Of a stretch of DNA of 64,000 nucleotides, positions 5,426-32,974 are shown in pieces. Under the pieces are notes generated by a model. That model had not been told where the DNA came from and did no database searches. It was given only the letters and a program-made list of their open reading frames with translations. Both the position numbers and the translations under genes were made by a program. Source of the stretch: Escherichia coli (lineage in GTDB: Bacteria; Pseudomonadota; Gammaproteobacteria; Enterobacterales; Enterobacteriaceae); NCBI RefSeq assembly GCF_022846255.1, contig NZ_AP025682.1, one strand, 5' to 3'. Position 1 is the stretch's first letter. Every line of letters starts with the position of its first letter.

Positions 5426-6622
5426 ATGCTAAAAGTGTTATTGCTCTTTGTGTTGCTGATTGCGGGGATCGTGGTTGGCCCGATGATTGCCGGCCATCAG
5501 GGTTACGTGCTGATCCAGACCGACAACTACAATATTGAAACTAGCGTCACGGGCCTCGCGATTATTTTGATTCTGGCGATGGTAGTGCTGTTTGCCATTG
5601 AGTGGCTACTGCGGCGAATCTTCCGCACAGGCGCGCACACCCGTGGGTGGTTTGTCGGACGTAAGCGTCGCCGTGCACGTAAGCAGACCGAACAGGCGCT
5701 GCTGAAACTGGCGGAAGGCGATTATCAGCAAGTTGAAAAGTTGATGGCGAAAAATGCCGATCACGCTGAACAACCGGTGGTGAACTATCTACTGGCAGCC
5801 GAAGCCGCGCAACAACGTGGTGATGAAGCACGCGCCAACCAACATCTGGAACGCGCAGCGGAGCTGGCCGGCAATGACACCATTCCGGTAGAAATCACCC
5901 GTGTACGTCTGCAACTGGCCCGTAATGAAAACCATGCAGCACGTCACGGCGTGGATAAGCTGCTGGAAGTTACGCCACGCCATCCGGAAGTATTACGTCT
6001 GGCGGAACAGGCGTATATCCGCACTGGTGCATGGAGTTCGCTGCTGGATATCATCCCATCAATGGCGAAAGCCCATGTTGGTGATGAAGAACATCGTGCA
6101 ATGCTGGAACAACAGGCATGGATTGGCCTGATGGATCAGGCGCGTGCCGATAACGGTAGTGAAGGTTTGCGTAACTGGTGGAAAAACCAAAGCCGGAAAA
6201 CGCGTCATCAGGTGGCCTTGCAGGTGGCAATGGCGGAACATCTTATTGAGTGTGACGATCATGATACTGCCCAGCAAATTATCATCGATGGCCTGAAACG
6301 CCAGTATGACGATCGCCTGCTGCTGCCGATCCCGCGTCTGAAAACCAATAACCCGGAACAGCTGGAAAAAGTGCTGCGCCAACAGATCAAAAACGTGGGC
6401 GATCGCCCGCTGTTGTGGAGCACACTGGGTCAGTCGCTGATGAAACACGGAGAATGGCAGGAAGCATCGCTCGCCTTCCGCGCAGCGCTGAAACAACGTC
6501 CGGACGCCTACGATTACGCATGGCTTGCCGACGCGCTGGACAGACTGCACAAGCCGGAAGAAGCCGCAGCGATGCGTCGCGACGGTTTGATGTTAACGTT
6601 GCAGAACAACCCGCCACAGTAG
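5426..6622 (+). CDS. hemY: HemY (TPR-containing inner-membrane protein of hem operon)
   Basis: 398-aa ORF starting 3 nt after hemX stop; matches HemY. Confidence 0.95.
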   Translation: MLKVLLLFVLLIAGIVVGPMIAGHQGYVLIQTDNYNIETSVTGLAIILILAMVVLFAIEWLLRRIFRTGAHTRGWFVGRKRRRARKQTEQALLKLAEGDYQQVEKLMAKNADHAEQPVVNYLLAAEAAQQRGDEARANQHLERAAELAGNDTIPVEITRVRLQLARNENHAARHGVDKLLEVTPRHPEVLRLAEQAYIRTGAWSSLLDIIPSMAKAHVGDEEHRAMLEQQAWIGLMDQARADNGSEGLRNWWKNQSRKTRHQVALQVAMAEHLIECDDHDTAQQIIIDGLKRQYDDRLLLPIPRLKTNNPEQLEKVLRQQIKNVGDRPLLWSTLGQSLMKHGEWQEASLAFRAALKQRPDAYDYAWLADALDRLHKPEEAAAMRRDGLMLTLQNNPPQ

Positions 6623-6633
6623 CTCTTTCTCAC

Positions 6634-6660
6634 CCGGAGGCAAGCACCTCCGGGGCCTTT
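6634..6660 (+). terminator. Hairpin downstream of hemY (ccggagg-caagca-cctccgg), putative hem operon terminator
   Basis: Perfect 7-bp stem 12 nt after hemY stop followed by T-rich stretch (ctttct). Confidence 0.5.
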
Positions 6661-6669
6661 CTGATATAT

Positions 6670-6876
6670 AAAAAAACGCCTGCTCTTATTACGGAGCAGG
6701 CGTTAAAACAGGTCTGTATGACAACAAGTGGGTGCTTCACTCAACGTTGTGTCCATGGTGTCTGATGAGGCATAAGCGACATCTGTCAGTGGACGATAAG
6801 CACCGTAAACGGCTCTGCGTCATTCCGGAGTTTATGAGGCACTAAGGCGAACATAAGAGATGGAATGAGCATCTAC
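6670..6876 (-). ncRNA. glmZ: Small RNA GlmZ (207 nt) with intrinsic terminator at its 3' end
   Basis: Minus strand reads GUAGAUGCUCAUUCCAUCUCUUAUGUUCGCC...AACGCCUGCUCCGUAAUAAGAGCAGGCGUUUUUUU, matching recalled GlmZ; located between hemY and aslA as in E. coli. Confidence 0.85.
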
Positions 6877-6882
6877 TCGTTT

Positions 6883-6888
6883 ATTATG
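6883..6888 (-). promoter_or_regulatory. Putative glmZ -10 element (TGgCATAAT extended -10) just upstream of the GlmZ 5' end
   Basis: Minus strand ...tctgtggcataataaacg immediately 5' of GUAGAUG; spacing ~6 nt to the RNA 5' end. Confidence 0.5.
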
Positions 6889-7300
6889 CCACAGAGAACC
6901 GGGAAATAACATCCCTTAACACTTGTTATGAGATAATTCTGTAATCCTCTTTGCTTCCTGAGTAATAACTTCCTGAGTGAATATTTCTCCTGCGCACAAT
7001 TCTACACATATATATAATGAATAATAAAAGTCATTCAATTAATAACATATATATTAATTGCCGTTAAAACTAAAAACAGCATCAATAATCAACGCGATAT
7101 AACATCACCGCCTTACATATCACCTGCGCCAGAGGTAGGATTGCAAACGCTCTCCTGATTTTCCAATTCATTTTCTGGATAAATAAATAATTTATTTTTA
7201 TCACTATTATTTATGCAATCATCCTGTCAGGGAGAGGGATCTCAATTATCAATGCTTAATTACGTCATCATTTTGACGACATGAAACCGGAGCATTTTGC

Positions 7301-8956
7301 ATGGAATTTTCGTTTTCACCCAAACTTCTTGTTGTTGCTGTCGCCGCAGCTCTTCCTCTCATAGCCAGCGCAGCAGATACCCCGTCAACCGCCACCGCAC
7401 GCAAAGGCTTTGCCGGATACGATCACCCAAACCAGTATCTGGTTAAACCGGCGACCACTATTGCCGACAACATGATGCCGGTGATGCAGCATCCTGCACA
7501 AGACAAAGAAACCCAGCAGAAACTGGCGGAACTTGAGAAAAAAACCGGTAAGAAACCGAACGTGGTTGTTTTCTTGCTGGATGATGTGGGCTGGATGGAC
7601 GTTGGCTTTAACGGCGGCGGCGTGGCGGTGGGTAACCCTACACCAGATATCGACGCCGTTGCCAGCCAGGGGCTGATTTTAACTTCGGCGTATTCTCAAC
7701 CGAGTTCTTCCCCAACCCGCGCCACGATTCTCACCGGACAATACTCCATCCACCACGGCATTCTGATGCCGCCAATGTACGGGCAACCGGGCGGTCTGCA
7801 AGGGTTAACCACGCTGCCGCAGTTGCTGCACGATCAGGGCTACGTCACTCAGGCCATCGGGAAATGGCATATGGGGGAAAACAAAGAGTCGCAGCCGCAG
7901 AACGTTGGCTTTGATGATTTCCGCGGCTTTAACTCGGTATCCGATATGTATACCGAATGGCGTGATGTTCACGTCAACCCGGAAGTCGCCCTGAGCCCGG
8001 ATCGTTCTGAATACATCCAAAAACTGCCGTTCAGCAAAGATGACGTTCATGCCGTGCGCGGCGGTGAACAGGAAGCCATTGCCGACATTACGCCGAAATA
8101 TATGGAAGACCTGGATCAACGCTGGATGGAATATGGCGTTAAGTTCCTCGACAAGATGGCGAAGAGTGATAAGCCTTTCTTCCTCTATTACGGCACTCGC
8201 GGCTGTCACTTCGATAACTACCCAAATGCGAAATATGCGGGTAGCTCTCCGGCGCGCACCTCTTACGGCGACTGCATGGTGGAGATGAACGATATCTTCG
8301 CCAATCTGTATAAAGCACTGGAGAAAAACGGTCAGCTTGATAACACGCTGATTGTGTTCACCTCTGATAACGGTCCGGAAGCCGAAGTTCCGCCGCACGG
8401 TCGCACGCCGTTCCGCGGTGCGAAAGGTTCTACATGGGAAGGCGGCGTTCGTGTGCCAACCTTCGTTTACTGGAAAGGCATGATCCAACCGCGTAAATCT
8501 GACGGCATTGTCGATCTGGCGGATCTCTTCCCTACGGCACTGGATCTGGCGGGGCACCCTGGGGCGAAAGTAGCGAATTTAGTACCGAAAACCACCTTTA
8601 TCGATGGTGTGGACCAGACATCTTTCTTCCTGGGAACAAATGGTCAGTCTAACCGTAAGGCCGAGCACTACTTCCTCAACGGCAAACTTTCTGCTGTGCG
8701 TATGGATGAGTTCAAGTATCACGTCCTGATCCAGCAACCGTACGCGTATACCCAGAGCGGGTATCAGGGTGGATTCACCGGCACAGTAATGCAAACGGCG
8801 GGATCGTCGGTGTTTAACCTGTACACCGATCCGCAGGAAAGCGACTCCATCGGCGTGCGCCATATCCCAATGGGTGTACCGCTACAGACCGAAATGCACG
8901 CGTATATGGAGATCCTGAAAAAATATCCACCACGCGCGCAGATTAAATCTGATTAA
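7301..8956 (+). CDS. aslA: Arylsulfatase-family protein AslA (periplasmic sulfatase, signal peptide)
   Basis: 551-aa ORF; N-terminal signal sequence; sulfatase motifs; matches AslA. Confidence 0.93.
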
Positions 8957-8983
8957 GCCGGCGCTATCGCTGAGATCTACCTT

Positions 8984-9012
8984 TGCCGGATGCGATGCTG
9001 ACGCATCCGGCA
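8984..9012. repeat. REP (repetitive extragenic palindromic) element
   Basis: tgccggatgcgatgctgacgcatccggca, the canonical GCCGGATGCG...CGCATCCGGC palindromic unit. Confidence 0.65.
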
Positions 9013-9022
9013 ATCAACCGCA

Positions 9023-9050
9023 GGCGGCCACAAAATGGCCGCTTTTTTAC
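9023..9050 (+). terminator. Intrinsic terminator downstream of aslA (hairpin ggcggcc-acaaaat-ggccgc + T6)
   Basis: GC stem followed by tttttt; overlaps aslB stop codon on the other strand. Confidence 0.6.
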
Positions 9051-10282
9051 TTATTCACCACCAGCAAATGCGCCTGCATAATGTCGCTGGCCGGACGACC
9101 GTGCGCCAGTAAATCAACCATTGCTTTAAGATATGGCGGTAGATGGCGGAAATAACGCTGATACCCGGCACACAAATAATTCAGCCCGGGTTTGCCGCTG
9201 GCATCGAGCATAAAGCGGTGTTTCGGGCAGCCTCCCCAGCACGCTTTTAACACGTTGCAACTGCGACACTGTGCCGGTAACTGCTTGAATTTATCTTCAC
9301 CAAATGCCTGCTGTTGCGGGGAATCAATCATTTCTGCAATCATCTGCTGAAGCATATTCCCTAGTCGATACTGCGGATAAACATAGTGATCGCAGGCATA
9401 AACGTCACCGTTGTGCTCAACAATCACCGAGCGCCCACAGGTTGGCTGATGATGGCAAACCGCGCCCGGTGCGCCGACAAAATTGGCGAACGCCCATTCG
9501 ATATTCATTACGAAAATCTTGCCGACGTCGCGCTTAATCCAGTGGTCGAAAATCGCCACCAGAAACTCACCGAACTCTTGCGGGCACACCGACCATTCCG
9601 TCAGTTCGCCCTGAATATCGCCGGGAGCATGTAGCTTAAGTCCAGCATGAGCAGCCGTTTCATCAGCCAGGCGCTCGACCACCGGAATAAACTGGATGAA
9701 CTCAACACCTGCATCACACAGAAAATCATAGACTTGCAAAGGTTGTAACGCACTGGTGCGATTGACGCAGACCAGCACGTTATAGTCGACATGATGTTTT
9801 TGCAGGAGCGTCAGAGCACGCATCACCAGCTTATGCGTTGGTCTGCCACCTTTGGTCACGCGATATTGATTGTGGATCTCAGCCGGACCATCCAGCGATA
9901 ACCCTACAAGAAAATGATTTTCTGCCAGAAATGCACACCATTCGTCATCGAGCAGCACGCCGTTAGTCTGGAAGCTATTACTTATCTTCCTGCCAGCACC
10001 ATATTTCGCCTGTAGCGCCACGGCACGGCGGTAAAAATCCAGCCCGAGTAACGTTGGTTCGCCGCCCTGCCAGGTAAAAGCCACTTCGTTTTGGGTTTCG
10101 CTGGCAGCGATATAGTGACGGACATACGCTTCCAGCGTGTCATCGTCCATATGCGTGACTGGCTTTTCGTGGTAAAGGGATTGTTTTTCGAGATAAAAAC
10201 AGTAGTCACAGTTCAGATTACAATCAGAACCGCTCGGTTTCGCCATCACATGAAAAGCACGCGTTGGAACCTGTTGCTGCAT
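9047..10282 (-). CDS. aslB: Anaerobic sulfatase-maturating enzyme homolog (radical SAM, CxxxCxxC)
   Basis: ORF 9047..10312; start taken at MQQQVPTRAFHVMAKPSGSDCNLNCDYCFY (411 aa), radical-SAM Cys motif visible; alternative upstream ATG at 10312. Confidence 0.88.
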   Translation of the reverse strand: MQQQVPTRAFHVMAKPSGSDCNLNCDYCFYLEKQSLYHEKPVTHMDDDTLEAYVRHYIAASETQNEVAFTWQGGEPTLLGLDFYRRAVALQAKYGAGRKISNSFQTNGVLLDDEWCAFLAENHFLVGLSLDGPAEIHNQYRVTKGGRPTHKLVMRALTLLQKHHVDYNVLVCVNRTSALQPLQVYDFLCDAGVEFIQFIPVVERLADETAAHAGLKLHAPGDIQGELTEWSVCPQEFGEFLVAIFDHWIKRDVGKIFVMNIEWAFANFVGAPGAVCHHQPTCGRSVIVEHNGDVYACDHYVYPQYRLGNMLQQMIAEMIDSPQQQAFGEDKFKQLPAQCRSCNVLKACWGGCPKHRFMLDASGKPGLNYLCAGYQRYFRHLPPYLKAMVDLLAHGRPASDIMQAHLLVVNK

Positions 10283-10395
10283 GGTCGCTCCTTGCCTGAA
10301 GTCATCCTTCAATAAGTTAAGGGCGAAATCATACCGTGGCGCAATACGTTATTACGGGCGTTTATTGCGAAGGGAAAGTGACGAAATGCACAGAA

Positions 10396-10427
10396 AACAA
10401 AAAACCCCGCCGAAGCGGGGTTCAAAA
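10396..10427 (-). terminator. Intrinsic terminator of the argX-hisR-leuT-proM tRNA operon
   Basis: Minus strand: hairpin ccccgc-ttcg-gcgggg followed by tttttt immediately 3' of tRNA-Pro. Confidence 0.75.
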
Positions 10428-10428
10428 T

Positions 10429-10505
10429 TGGTCGGCGAGAGAGGATTCGAACCTCCGACCCACTGGTCCCAAACCAGTTGCGCTACCAAGCTGCGCTACT
10501 CGCCG
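10429..10505 (-). tRNA. proM: tRNA-Pro (anticodon UGG)
   Basis: Reverse complement is a 77-nt tRNA with anticodon loop UUUGGGA and CCA end; matches E. coli proM. Confidence 0.96.
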
Positions 10506-10547
10506 AAATACTGCTTTTTGAATTTTTAGTTCAATTCTTTAAAGTCG

Positions 10548-10634
10548 TGGTGCGAGGGGGGGGACTTGAACCCCCACGTCCGTAAGGACACTAACACCTG
10601 AAGCTAGCGCGTCTACCAATTCCGCCACCTTCGC
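10548..10634 (-). tRNA. leuT: tRNA-Leu (anticodon CAG), long variable arm
   Basis: 87-nt tRNA on minus strand, anticodon CAG, CCA encoded. Confidence 0.96.
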
Positions 10635-10654
10635 ATTGTCACAACTTCTAATAA

Positions 10655-10731
10655 TGGGGTGGCTAATGGGATTCGAACCCACGACAACTGGAATCACAAT
10701 CCAGGGCTCTACCAACTGAGCTATAGCCACC
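10655..10731 (-). tRNA. hisR: tRNA-His (anticodon GUG) with extra 5' G(-1)
   Basis: 77-nt tRNA on minus strand, anticodon loop AUUGUGA. Confidence 0.96.
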
Positions 10732-10788
10732 ACTACAAATCTTGTTACGCGGTATTACTACCACCGCAGCTCAAGCGCCGGGACTAAA

Positions 10789-10865
<77 letters not shown>

Positions 10866-32929: not shown

Positions 32930-32933
32930 CAGC

Positions 32934-32958
32934 AAGGCCTTCTCCGGGAGAAGGCCTT
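32934..32958. other. GC-rich hairpin between convergent ppiC and ilvC (possible bidirectional terminator, no clear U-tract)
   Basis: aaggccttctc-cggga-gagaaggcctt inverted repeat. Confidence 0.35.
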
Positions 32959-32974
32959 GAACTCTGAATCGCTA

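Follow-up and report, generated by a model that had tools for sequence, protein, structure and literature searches.

The AT-rich DNA examined here lies between two divergently oriented genes in a stretch of 64,000 nucleotides of Escherichia coli (hereafter, the window). On the minus strand is the gene for the small RNA GlmZ, and on the plus strand is aslA, followed by aslB (Table 1). A search of 6400-7500 against Rfam gave a full-length GlmZ match covering model positions 1-214 and scoring 218.4 bits (gathering score 60; E-value 5.8e-58). The gene is 100% identical between the window and K-12. It is annotated as b4456 at the matching position in MG1655 and is omitted from genomes annotated with PGAP. 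The first-pass annotation had described the stretch as lying upstream of aslA, which is true but incomplete, as the Rfam match places glmZ on the other strand with the same spacer. Because glmZ was found at 6876..6670, the flagged region is a two-promoter divergent spacer and not merely aslA upstream DNA. It is the control region common to glmZ (minus strand) and aslA (plus strand), and where annotation pipelines miss glmZ, an apparently long aslA upstream region is really a spacer with two promoters.

To find functional elements, we used a conserved glmZ motif to scan a collection of species-level genomes and obtained 95 loci with glmZ. In the window, hemY (5426-6622, plus strand) is convergent with glmZ, and the hemCDXY neighbourhood arrangement was kept in nearly all of the 95 loci for which the flank was available.

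Composition and copy number of the spacer

The AT-richness reported in the first-pass annotation was borne out. The GC content is 0.334 over 6900-7300 versus 0.522 for the whole window, and both of the A/T strings that had been quoted are found in the sequence, at 7020-7060 and 7181-7216. When GC was computed in sliding windows, the minima of the entire 64 kb fell here, at 6905-7104 for 200 bp (GC 0.285) and at 6916-7315 for 400 bp (GC 0.325); windows equally low in GC made up 0.02% and 0.1% of the 64 kb, respectively. The 100-bp minimum of the spacer (GC 0.21) is likewise the lowest in 64 kb. TpA steps are 2.4-fold and A/T tracts of at least 4 are 2.1-fold more frequent than the window average. 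The AT-rich DNA is divided into two blocks by an island of normal GC content (Table 1).

The same stretch had also been called curved-looking, a description that was not supported. We modelled curvature with two wedge models, which serve for ranking within the window only. By these models, the spacer averaged 7.3 and 6.8 degrees per turn versus 6.4 and 5.9 for the window, and approximately 13-15% of equal-sized windows matched or exceeded it. Locally, a peak at about 7061-7081 reached 11-13 degrees per turn, at or just under the 95th percentile (12.6-13.4), and a second at about 7295-7300, on the aslA start codon, exceeded the 99th percentile. In contrast to the spacer as a whole, position 42,126 in front of ilvL scored among the highest peaks of the window with both models; this region is a known bent upstream activating sequence. 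Since this spot ranks among the top peaks, the models are able to detect curvature. With a modelled mean that is about average, curvature was rejected as a distinguishing property of the spacer. The region upstream of ilvL (ilvGMEDA; approximately 42,050-42,240) is likewise a divergent spacer and comes second in AT content within the window, but it is among the top predicted curvature peaks, whereas the aslA spacer is not.

A repeat search revealed only short internal repeats, among them the tandem repeat listed in Table 1, of which the second copy alone is retained in E. albertii and in a divergent Escherichia locus (L030). An 801-bp query (6600-7400) was present as a single copy, with at least 80% of its length found in 5,415 of 5,426 complete E. 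coli genomes. Because the query is single copy in E. coli and the internal repeats are short, we rejected an origin of the spacer from a repeat or mobile element.

Table 1. Features of the glmZ-aslA region, in window coordinates.
Feature	Position	Strand	Remarks
glmZ (GlmZ/SraJ), small RNA gene	6876..6670	-	Rfam RF00083; +1 at 6876
glmZ intrinsic terminator	6675-6704	-	11-bp stem followed by a T run; agrees with the 3' hairpin of the Rfam model
Divergent intergenic spacer between glmZ and aslA	6877-7300		424 bp; GC 0.337
glmZ sigma-70 -10, CATAAT	6888..6883	-	Extended TG at 6891..6890; read from sequence
Candidate glmZ -35, ATGTTA	6907-6912	-	3/6 consensus matches; 18-bp spacer; invariant in five E. 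coli strains
Derived block: AT-rich spacer, aslA and aslB	6894-10383		3.49 kb; between glmZ and the terminator of the proM tRNA operon
AT-rich block I	6917-7111		GC 0.297; core 6990-7100, GC 0.252; between the glmZ promoter and the candidate aslA promoter
15-bp tandem direct repeat, CTTCCTGAGTAATAA / CTTCCTGAGTGAATA	6954-6983	+	Repeat search; invariant in E. coli strains
GC-normal island	7112-7159		GC 0.50; holds the candidate aslA promoter; between blocks I and II
Candidate aslA core promoter, CTTACA-18-TAGGAT	7112-7141	+	CTTACA at 7112-7117; TAGGAT at 7136-7141
AT-rich block II	7160-7227		GC 0.206; downstream of the candidate aslA promoter; near-invariant between the window strain and K-12
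Imperfect palindrome, GTCATCA-TTT-TGACGAC	7264-7280	+	Just upstream of the aslA ribosome-binding site
aslA Shine-Dalgarno GGAG and start codon ATG	7289-7292; 7301-7303	+	GGAG and ATGGA invariant across six aslA-adjacent loci
aslA, arylsulfatase-family protein	7301-8956	+	551 aa; open reading frame list; RefSeq annotation of the identical locus
aslB	9047-10282	-	Next to aslA

Promoters and conservation within E. coli

The promoter of glmZ has been defined experimentally. In E. coli, glmZ is driven by a single constitutive sigma-70 promoter within -40..+1; sequence upstream of -40 is dispensable, and deletion to -20 or mutation of the -35/-10 kills expression (Göpel 2011; NAR 39:1294, PMC3045617). 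The promoter also needs neither sigma-54 nor GlrR, and GlrR does not bind it (Göpel 2011, PMC3045617). Since -40 corresponds to window position 6916, the sequence from 6917 to 7300, including block I, is unneeded for glmZ transcription. The -10 is conserved across all six aslA-adjacent loci, and ATGTTA is the probable -35, which, with three consensus bases and a position between -40 and -20, fits the published deletion data (Göpel 2011).

Sites of the sigma-54 type (TGGCA-N-TGCA) and of the GlrR type (TGTC-N10-GACA) are absent from the window-type E. coli spacer, and the glmZ promoter has the features of the Escherichia sigma-70 type and not those of the sigma-54/GlrR type of Salmonella and Yersinia. 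The K-12 aslA-glmZ region studied by Göpel 2011 (PMC3045617) is the same locus, with a spacer 94.3% identical to that of the window and the same -10/-35, and it likewise has no sigma-54, GlrR or IHF sites. Window positions convert to MG1655 coordinates as 3,993,308 minus the window position, which puts the spacer at 3,986,008-3,986,431 there. Between the -10 and -35 of glmZ, the window strain and K-12 differ at a single position, 6899. That study addressed the glmZ side, not the aslA side.

For the aslA side, we compared the spacers of loci in which aslA adjoins glmZ. Such adjacency was found in 5 of the 95 loci: L030 (labelled E. coli, divergent), E. albertii, Superficieibacter, Kluyvera genomosp. 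1 and Pseudocitrobacter. The five spacers are all AT-rich (GC 0.30-0.34) and align poorly, with a mean column identity of 58%. Conserved in the aligned spacers are the glmZ -10, the ribosome-binding site with the start codon, and (C/T)TTACA-18 bp-TA(G/A)(G/T)AT. In the form TTACA-N18-TAnnAT, this last pattern occurs exactly once per spacer in six loci from four genera, whereas random sequence matched in composition would contain it with a probability of 0.4-1.6% per spacer; these figures are indicative only, as the pattern was set post hoc from aligned, related loci. Its distance to the ATG is 159 nt in Superficieibacter and the three Escherichia loci, but 148 nt in Kluyvera and 101 nt in Pseudocitrobacter. 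In the window, the element matches 8 of 12 consensus positions with an 18-bp spacer, and it would place the transcription start near 7148 (about 3,986,160 on the minus strand of MG1655), giving a leader of approximately 150 nt. We infer from this footprint that CTTACA-18-TAGGAT is the best candidate for the aslA promoter, of a weak sigma-70 type.

A different aslA promoter, TTAACA-18-TGTAAT at 6916-6945, was predicted by Shimada 2014 (PMC3946193). We ranked it below the cross-genus footprint because its -10 is lost even in E. albertii, where it reads TGCAAC. A simple sigma-70 scan of the spacer gave no plus-strand match, and its two minus-strand matches (7245..7218 and 7230..7203) were dismissed as chance level, with 2.5 expected. 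One of these two matches is apparently the "glmZ promoter" of Shimada 2014, which conflicts with the experimentally defined promoter (Göpel 2011). The palindrome just upstream of the ribosome-binding site is perfect in K-12, shows mirrored arm changes in E. albertii (GACATCA..TGATGTC) and is broken in O157 and E09. We found no published mapping of the aslA promoter in the literature; the only expression data that we came across, from E. coli K1, describe aslA as indirectly dependent on RpoE and as induced approximately 3-fold by LL-37.

We further examined how the spacer varies within the species. The 801-bp query is 100% identical to NZ_CP031215 and 96% identical to K-12-type genomes, and the window strain carries a minority haplotype, with at least 99% identity over the query in approximately 1,118 of 5,425 genomes. 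Compared with MG1655, the spacer has 24 mismatches, clustered in a hypervariable patch of block I (6987-7030) and at 7103-7109, just before the candidate aslA -35, and it contains change-free runs of 87, 54, 55 and 60 bp. Over the same comparison, aslA is 94.3% identical overall and 84.2% identical at third codon positions, and the third codon positions of hemY are 90.7% identical. From these rates, 67 mismatches would be expected in the spacer on the basis of aslA third positions (P 1e-10) or 39 on the basis of hemY (P 0.004). Between E. coli lineages, the approximately 385 bp beyond the glmZ promoter have thus changed less than synonymous sites have. For this reason, the AT-rich blocks are functional non-coding DNA and not decaying filler.

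A possible role of nucleoid proteins in the control of aslA

The first-pass annotation had regarded the tract as typical of H-NS-bound, conditionally silenced promoters. This was only partly upheld: the two blocks are approximately 70-80% AT and rich in TpA, a composition favoured by H-NS, but the nucleation motif is not enriched, the curvature is average and the tract is short. The best site resembling the nucleation 10-mer (TCGATAAATT-like), TGGATAAATA at 7176-7185 in block II, matches 8 of 10 positions and is the sole match in the spacer versus 1.4 expected by chance. Enrichment of this motif, which stood at chance level, was rejected, as was the exact IHF consensus, which has no match within 6800-7400. 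H-NS regions shorter than 1 kb have been found to favour operon-upstream DNA and to act as "gentler modulators", with 40% of target genes changing in an hns mutant, and silencing goes with long H-NS tracts (Kahramanoglou 2011). The AT tract here is approximately 0.33 kb, bounded by glmZ and aslA (GC 0.53), and falls short of the >1 kb of an extended tract. As a 0.33-kb tract between GC-normal genes, the spacer would belong to the short H-NS class.

Position 3,984,454 in older MG1655 coordinates is presumably the glmZ +1. It is the peak at which the aslA<>glmZ spacer, classified as type A, bound RpoD holoenzyme in genomic SELEX (Shimada 2014, PMC3946193). In Table 1 of that study, the spacer is marked HNS, that is, as holding one of 987 SELEX H-NS sites determined in vitro, whereas in Table S2A, which we read by machine, it has no HNS mark; istR/tisB is likewise marked HNS in Table 1 and unmarked in Table S2A (Shimada 2014, PMC3946193). 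The region upstream of ilvL differs in carrying the HNS mark in both tables. The H-NS evidence that Shimada 2014 offers for the spacer is in vitro and internally inconsistent. As for conditional silencing, the in vitro mark in Table 1, absent from Table S2A (PMC3946193), speaks for it, but the glmZ promoter at the edge of the tract is constitutive and clearly unsilenced. A full-text search of the papers covered for links of aslA or glmZ with H-NS returned only Shimada 2014, and none that ties aslA expression to hns; aslA, glmZ and hemY are unmentioned in the main text of two H-NS papers. H-NS binding or silencing at the spacer is plausible, and AT-rich intergenic DNA that may be bound by H-NS is commonplace in E. 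coli.

At H-NS-repressed promoters such as proU and bgl, the core is flanked on either side by AT-rich elements. The aslA side resembles them in having a candidate weak core promoter in a GC-normal island with TpA-rich blocks of approximately 70-80% AT on both sides. It differs from them in its short tract, its unenriched motif and the constitutive divergent promoter at its edge, and the role of H-NS at the aslA spacer is putative.

We consider it fairly probable that in this two-promoter spacer a weak aslA promoter is kept low by a nucleoid protein on the AT blocks while the glmZ promoter escapes. Transcription of glmZ is constitutive and starts from a strong promoter with an extended -10, which lies on the left of the spacer where GC is higher; the weak sigma-70-type promoter at 7112-7141 would drive aslA. 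A nucleoid protein, most likely H-NS and possibly with StpA, Fis or IHF, may coat or bridge blocks I and II and hold the aslA promoter low until some signal relieves repression. The glmZ promoter would escape this repression by its position at the GC-richer edge. More speculatively, strong divergent glmZ transcription, 272 bp away, could feed negative supercoiling into the AT-rich DNA.

The composition of the spacer may instead be passive. Promoter DNA is generally AT-rich through UP-like elements, easy melting and mutational bias, and no specific part for H-NS would then be needed, with aslA being low owing to a weak promoter or a missing activator. Consistent with this, the other AT minima of the window, such as that upstream of ilvL, are also promoter spacers; the H-NS motif is unenriched and curvature average; the candidate aslA promoter has only 8 of 12 consensus positions with an 18-bp spacer; and Table S2A of Shimada 2014 (PMC3946193) lacks the HNS mark. 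However, no other tract in the 64 kb is as extreme in AT content, its blocks are conserved well beyond synonymous sites and must have been selected for something, and Table 1 of the same study (PMC3946193) does mark H-NS binding. Taken together, we regard a purely passive composition as rather unlikely, and the reading with a nucleoid protein acting on the AT blocks is preferred.

Origin of the block between glmZ and the proM operon

To investigate how the spacer came to lie beside glmZ, we compared the sequences upstream of glmZ across genera. Only approximately 300 bp separate glmZ from the tRNA Arg-His-Leu-Pro cluster upstream of it in Salmonella, Citrobacter and Enterobacter. The homology of this gap to the window ends at about -17 of glmZ (approximately 6893) and restarts at 10384-10428, which is the tRNA-operon terminator. 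Because the homology breaks at approximately 6893 and 10384, the 3.49-kb block of the window sits where the others have approximately 245 bp with the sigma-54 -24, IHF and GlrR sites.

The wider comparison drew on the glmZ loci for which 420 bp or more of upstream DNA was available, 76 in all, of which 5 were aslA-adjacent and 71 were not. A sigma-54-type TGGCA-N-TGCA at -27 was present in 63 of the 71 other loci versus none of the 5 aslA-adjacent ones (Fisher 7e-5, phylogeny ignored), and at least one exact GlrR site, TGTC-N10-GACA, in 58 of the 71 versus none of the 5. The aslA-adjacent loci had an upstream GC of 0.30-0.34, lower than in any of the 41 remaining Enterobacteriaceae-like loci (0.39-0.51, median 0.47).

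Promoters of the ancestral type, found at glmZ (and glmY) in Salmonella, Yersinia and most Enterobacterales, comprise a sigma-54 -24/-12, three GlrR sites and IHF sites. These glmZ loci have the same downstream gene as the window and the same -10-like TGTG(G)CA(T/A)AAT box at the transcription start, whereas everything upstream of about -17 is unrelated, with a GC content of 0.42-0.50 in place of 0.30-0.34. The sigma-54 architecture is common to glmY and is found in distant Enterobacterales (Göpel 2011, PMC3045617), and for this reason the sigma-54 arrangement is ancestral and the aslAB arrangement derived. The spacer, aslA and aslB form a derived 3.5-kb block that replaced the ancestral sigma-54/GlrR/IHF region of glmZ. 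The breakpoints account for the loss of GlrR and sigma-54 control at glmZ of E. coli, since the aslAB block replaced this control region.

Such a block next to a tRNA gene raises the possibility that the AT tract marks the edge of, or was carried in by, an aslAB islet gained through horizontal transfer and silenced as xenogeneic DNA. The block does lie in the gap that separates glmZ from the 3' side of the tRNA-Pro (proM) operon, and it is missing in Salmonella, Citrobacter and Enterobacter, as expected of a tRNA islet, which sits beside the 3' side of a tRNA gene and is missing from related genera; its distribution across genera is patchy, and the AT-rich spacer goes together with aslA adjacency. 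Its contents are not those of an islet, however, since aslA and aslB are its only annotated genes and the GC of the cargo is host-like (aslA 0.53, aslB 0.51, block 0.50), with the AT-rich part amounting to only approximately 0.33 kb. In addition, no integrase or mobile-element gene is annotated from glmZ to proM, and the 801-bp query is single copy in E. coli. The identity of AslA to other genera (82-91%) is similar to that of HemY (87-92%), which is consistent with old, vertically inherited DNA. A scar of foreign DNA is improbable on this evidence.

That the spacer encodes an unannotated product, such as a leader or riboswitch structure ahead of aslA, another small RNA or a small protein, is very improbable: a candidate promoter at a conserved 159 nt from the ATG, a long-range inverted repeat (7140-7155 / 7231-7246) and the palindrome at 7264-7280 would suit it, but GlmZ is the only Rfam family at permissive thresholds, shuffled sequences fold about as well as the predicted leader (z = -0.94) and RNAalifold on six taxa gave no consensus pairs, on which grounds the structured leader, riboswitch and second small RNA were rejected. 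As for a small protein, the spacer's only open reading frames, all on the minus strand, begin with TTG or GTG and would encode approximately 40 aa.

The locus is an ordinary intergenic control region, largely already described, to which the breakpoints and their association with aslA adjacency add a little. We propose tentatively, at slightly less than even confidence, that the spacer did not arise in place but came in, or was kept, as promoter DNA of the aslA-aslB block, with a weak aslA promoter between two AT blocks that a nucleoid protein can bridge. By overwriting the sequence upstream of about -17, the block may have severed the link between GlrK/GlrR signalling and the synthesis of GlmZ in Escherichia and a few other genera. 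As aslA is counted among the invasion factors of meningitis-causing E. coli K1, the candidate promoter CTTACA-18-TAGGAT and the adjacent two haplotypes offer concrete targets for how aslA may be switched on.

Two spacer haplotypes in E. coli

We compared the 424-bp divergent glmZ-aslA spacer (window 6877-7300) among E. coli strains and found two haplotypes, which are set apart by two hypervariable patches, while the rest of the spacer is near-invariant. Patch 2 lies directly 5' of the candidate aslA -35 element (7112-7117, predicted from sequence), and its K-12 version is the more A/T-rich (AATAAACC vs ACATCACC). When an 801-bp query (6600-7400) was searched against complete E. coli genomes, about 1,118 of 5,425 matched the window at ≥99% identity. 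Compared with MG1655, aslA is unusually divergent, with 94.3% nucleotide identity overall and 84% at third codon positions; of its neighbours, the adjoining glmZ is 100% identical and hemY 96.8%.

Features of the window around the glmZ-aslA spacer, the tRNA operon and ilvL
Feature	Window position	Strand	Detail
glmZ sRNA gene	6670-6876	-	
Tandem direct repeat	6954-6983	+	15 bp, CTTCCTGAGTAATAA / CTTCCTGAGTGAATA, from sequence
Hypervariable patch 1	6987-7030		12 differences in 44 bp vs K-12
Hypervariable patch 2	7103-7109		5 differences in 7 bp vs K-12
Putative AraC-like bases	7172-7190	-	ATTTATCCA
Palindrome	7264-7280	+	GTCATCA-TTT-TGACGAC, 9 nt 5' of aslA Shine-Dalgarno
aslA	7301-8956		
tRNA operon terminator	10384-10428		
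argX-hisR-leuT-proM	10429-10865	-	
AT-rich stretch upstream of ilvL	~42,050-42,240		100-bp minimum GC 0.21

The spacer also carries a tandem repeat and a palindrome. The tandem repeat is unchanged in five E. coli strains, other Escherichia keep its second copy only, and we recognised no match to a known binding site in it. The palindrome is perfect in K-12 and broken in strains O157 and E09; in E. albertii, both arms are altered in mirrored fashion (GACATCA..TGATGTC). This element could form a small hairpin or serve as a dimer-binding site.

Possible regulator sites and the annotation of glmZ

The AraC-like bases on the minus strand resemble the AraC half-site core, TTTATCCA, and coincide with the best H-NS-motif-like match. 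AraC was proposed as a candidate GlmZ regulator on the basis of reporter assays in a 2024 preprint (PMC11230228). In the genomic SELEX study of Shimada 2014, the marks for spacers holding an H-NS site disagree between Table 1 and Table S2A in at least two rows, namely aslA/glmZ and istR/tisB, and the "glmZ promoter" is listed as TTGAGA-17-GATGAT (PMC3946193). This listed promoter appears to correspond to window 7245..7218, a position about 340 bp further upstream than the glmZ promoter that was defined by experiment.

The glmZ gene is included in the MG1655 annotation and is missing from the PGAP annotation, both at the identical locus and in one K-12-like genome. Because PGAP omits it, the region upstream of aslA appears to be ~680 bp long and empty.

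Other loci of the window

The minus-strand gene aslB lies directly downstream of the argX-hisR-leuT-proM tRNA operon in the same direction, across a 146-bp gap that contains the conserved terminator of the operon, and read-through from the operon could reach aslB. Immediately 5' of ilvL, which encodes a leader peptide, lies the stretch that ranks second in the window for AT content and is also among its top predicted curvature peaks (42,126); the yifB<>ilvL spacer carries the H-NS mark in both tables of Shimada 2014 (PMC3946193).

The glmZ-aslA spacer of NZ_CP031215 is identical to that of the window, whereas identity elsewhere is ~98.1-98.5%. Unlike the window, NZ_CP031215 has ~5.4 kb between ppiC and ilvC (window 32,933-32,974), encoding an MFS transporter, a C-terminal binding protein, an RraA-family protein, a sugar kinase and a GntR regulator. 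The window therefore derives from a different strain, despite the shared spacer.

Strains with a disrupted spacer or aslA

In strain PSS-16 (L007, 3328-4093, equivalent to window ~6927 onward), an IS1 element has taken the place of the 5' part of aslA and of the spacer sequence beyond position -50 or so relative to glmZ, leaving the glmZ core promoter intact. The annotation of strain CE0026f (L005) gives aslA as a truncated pseudogene. Some lineages can therefore dispense with aslA and with most of the spacer.
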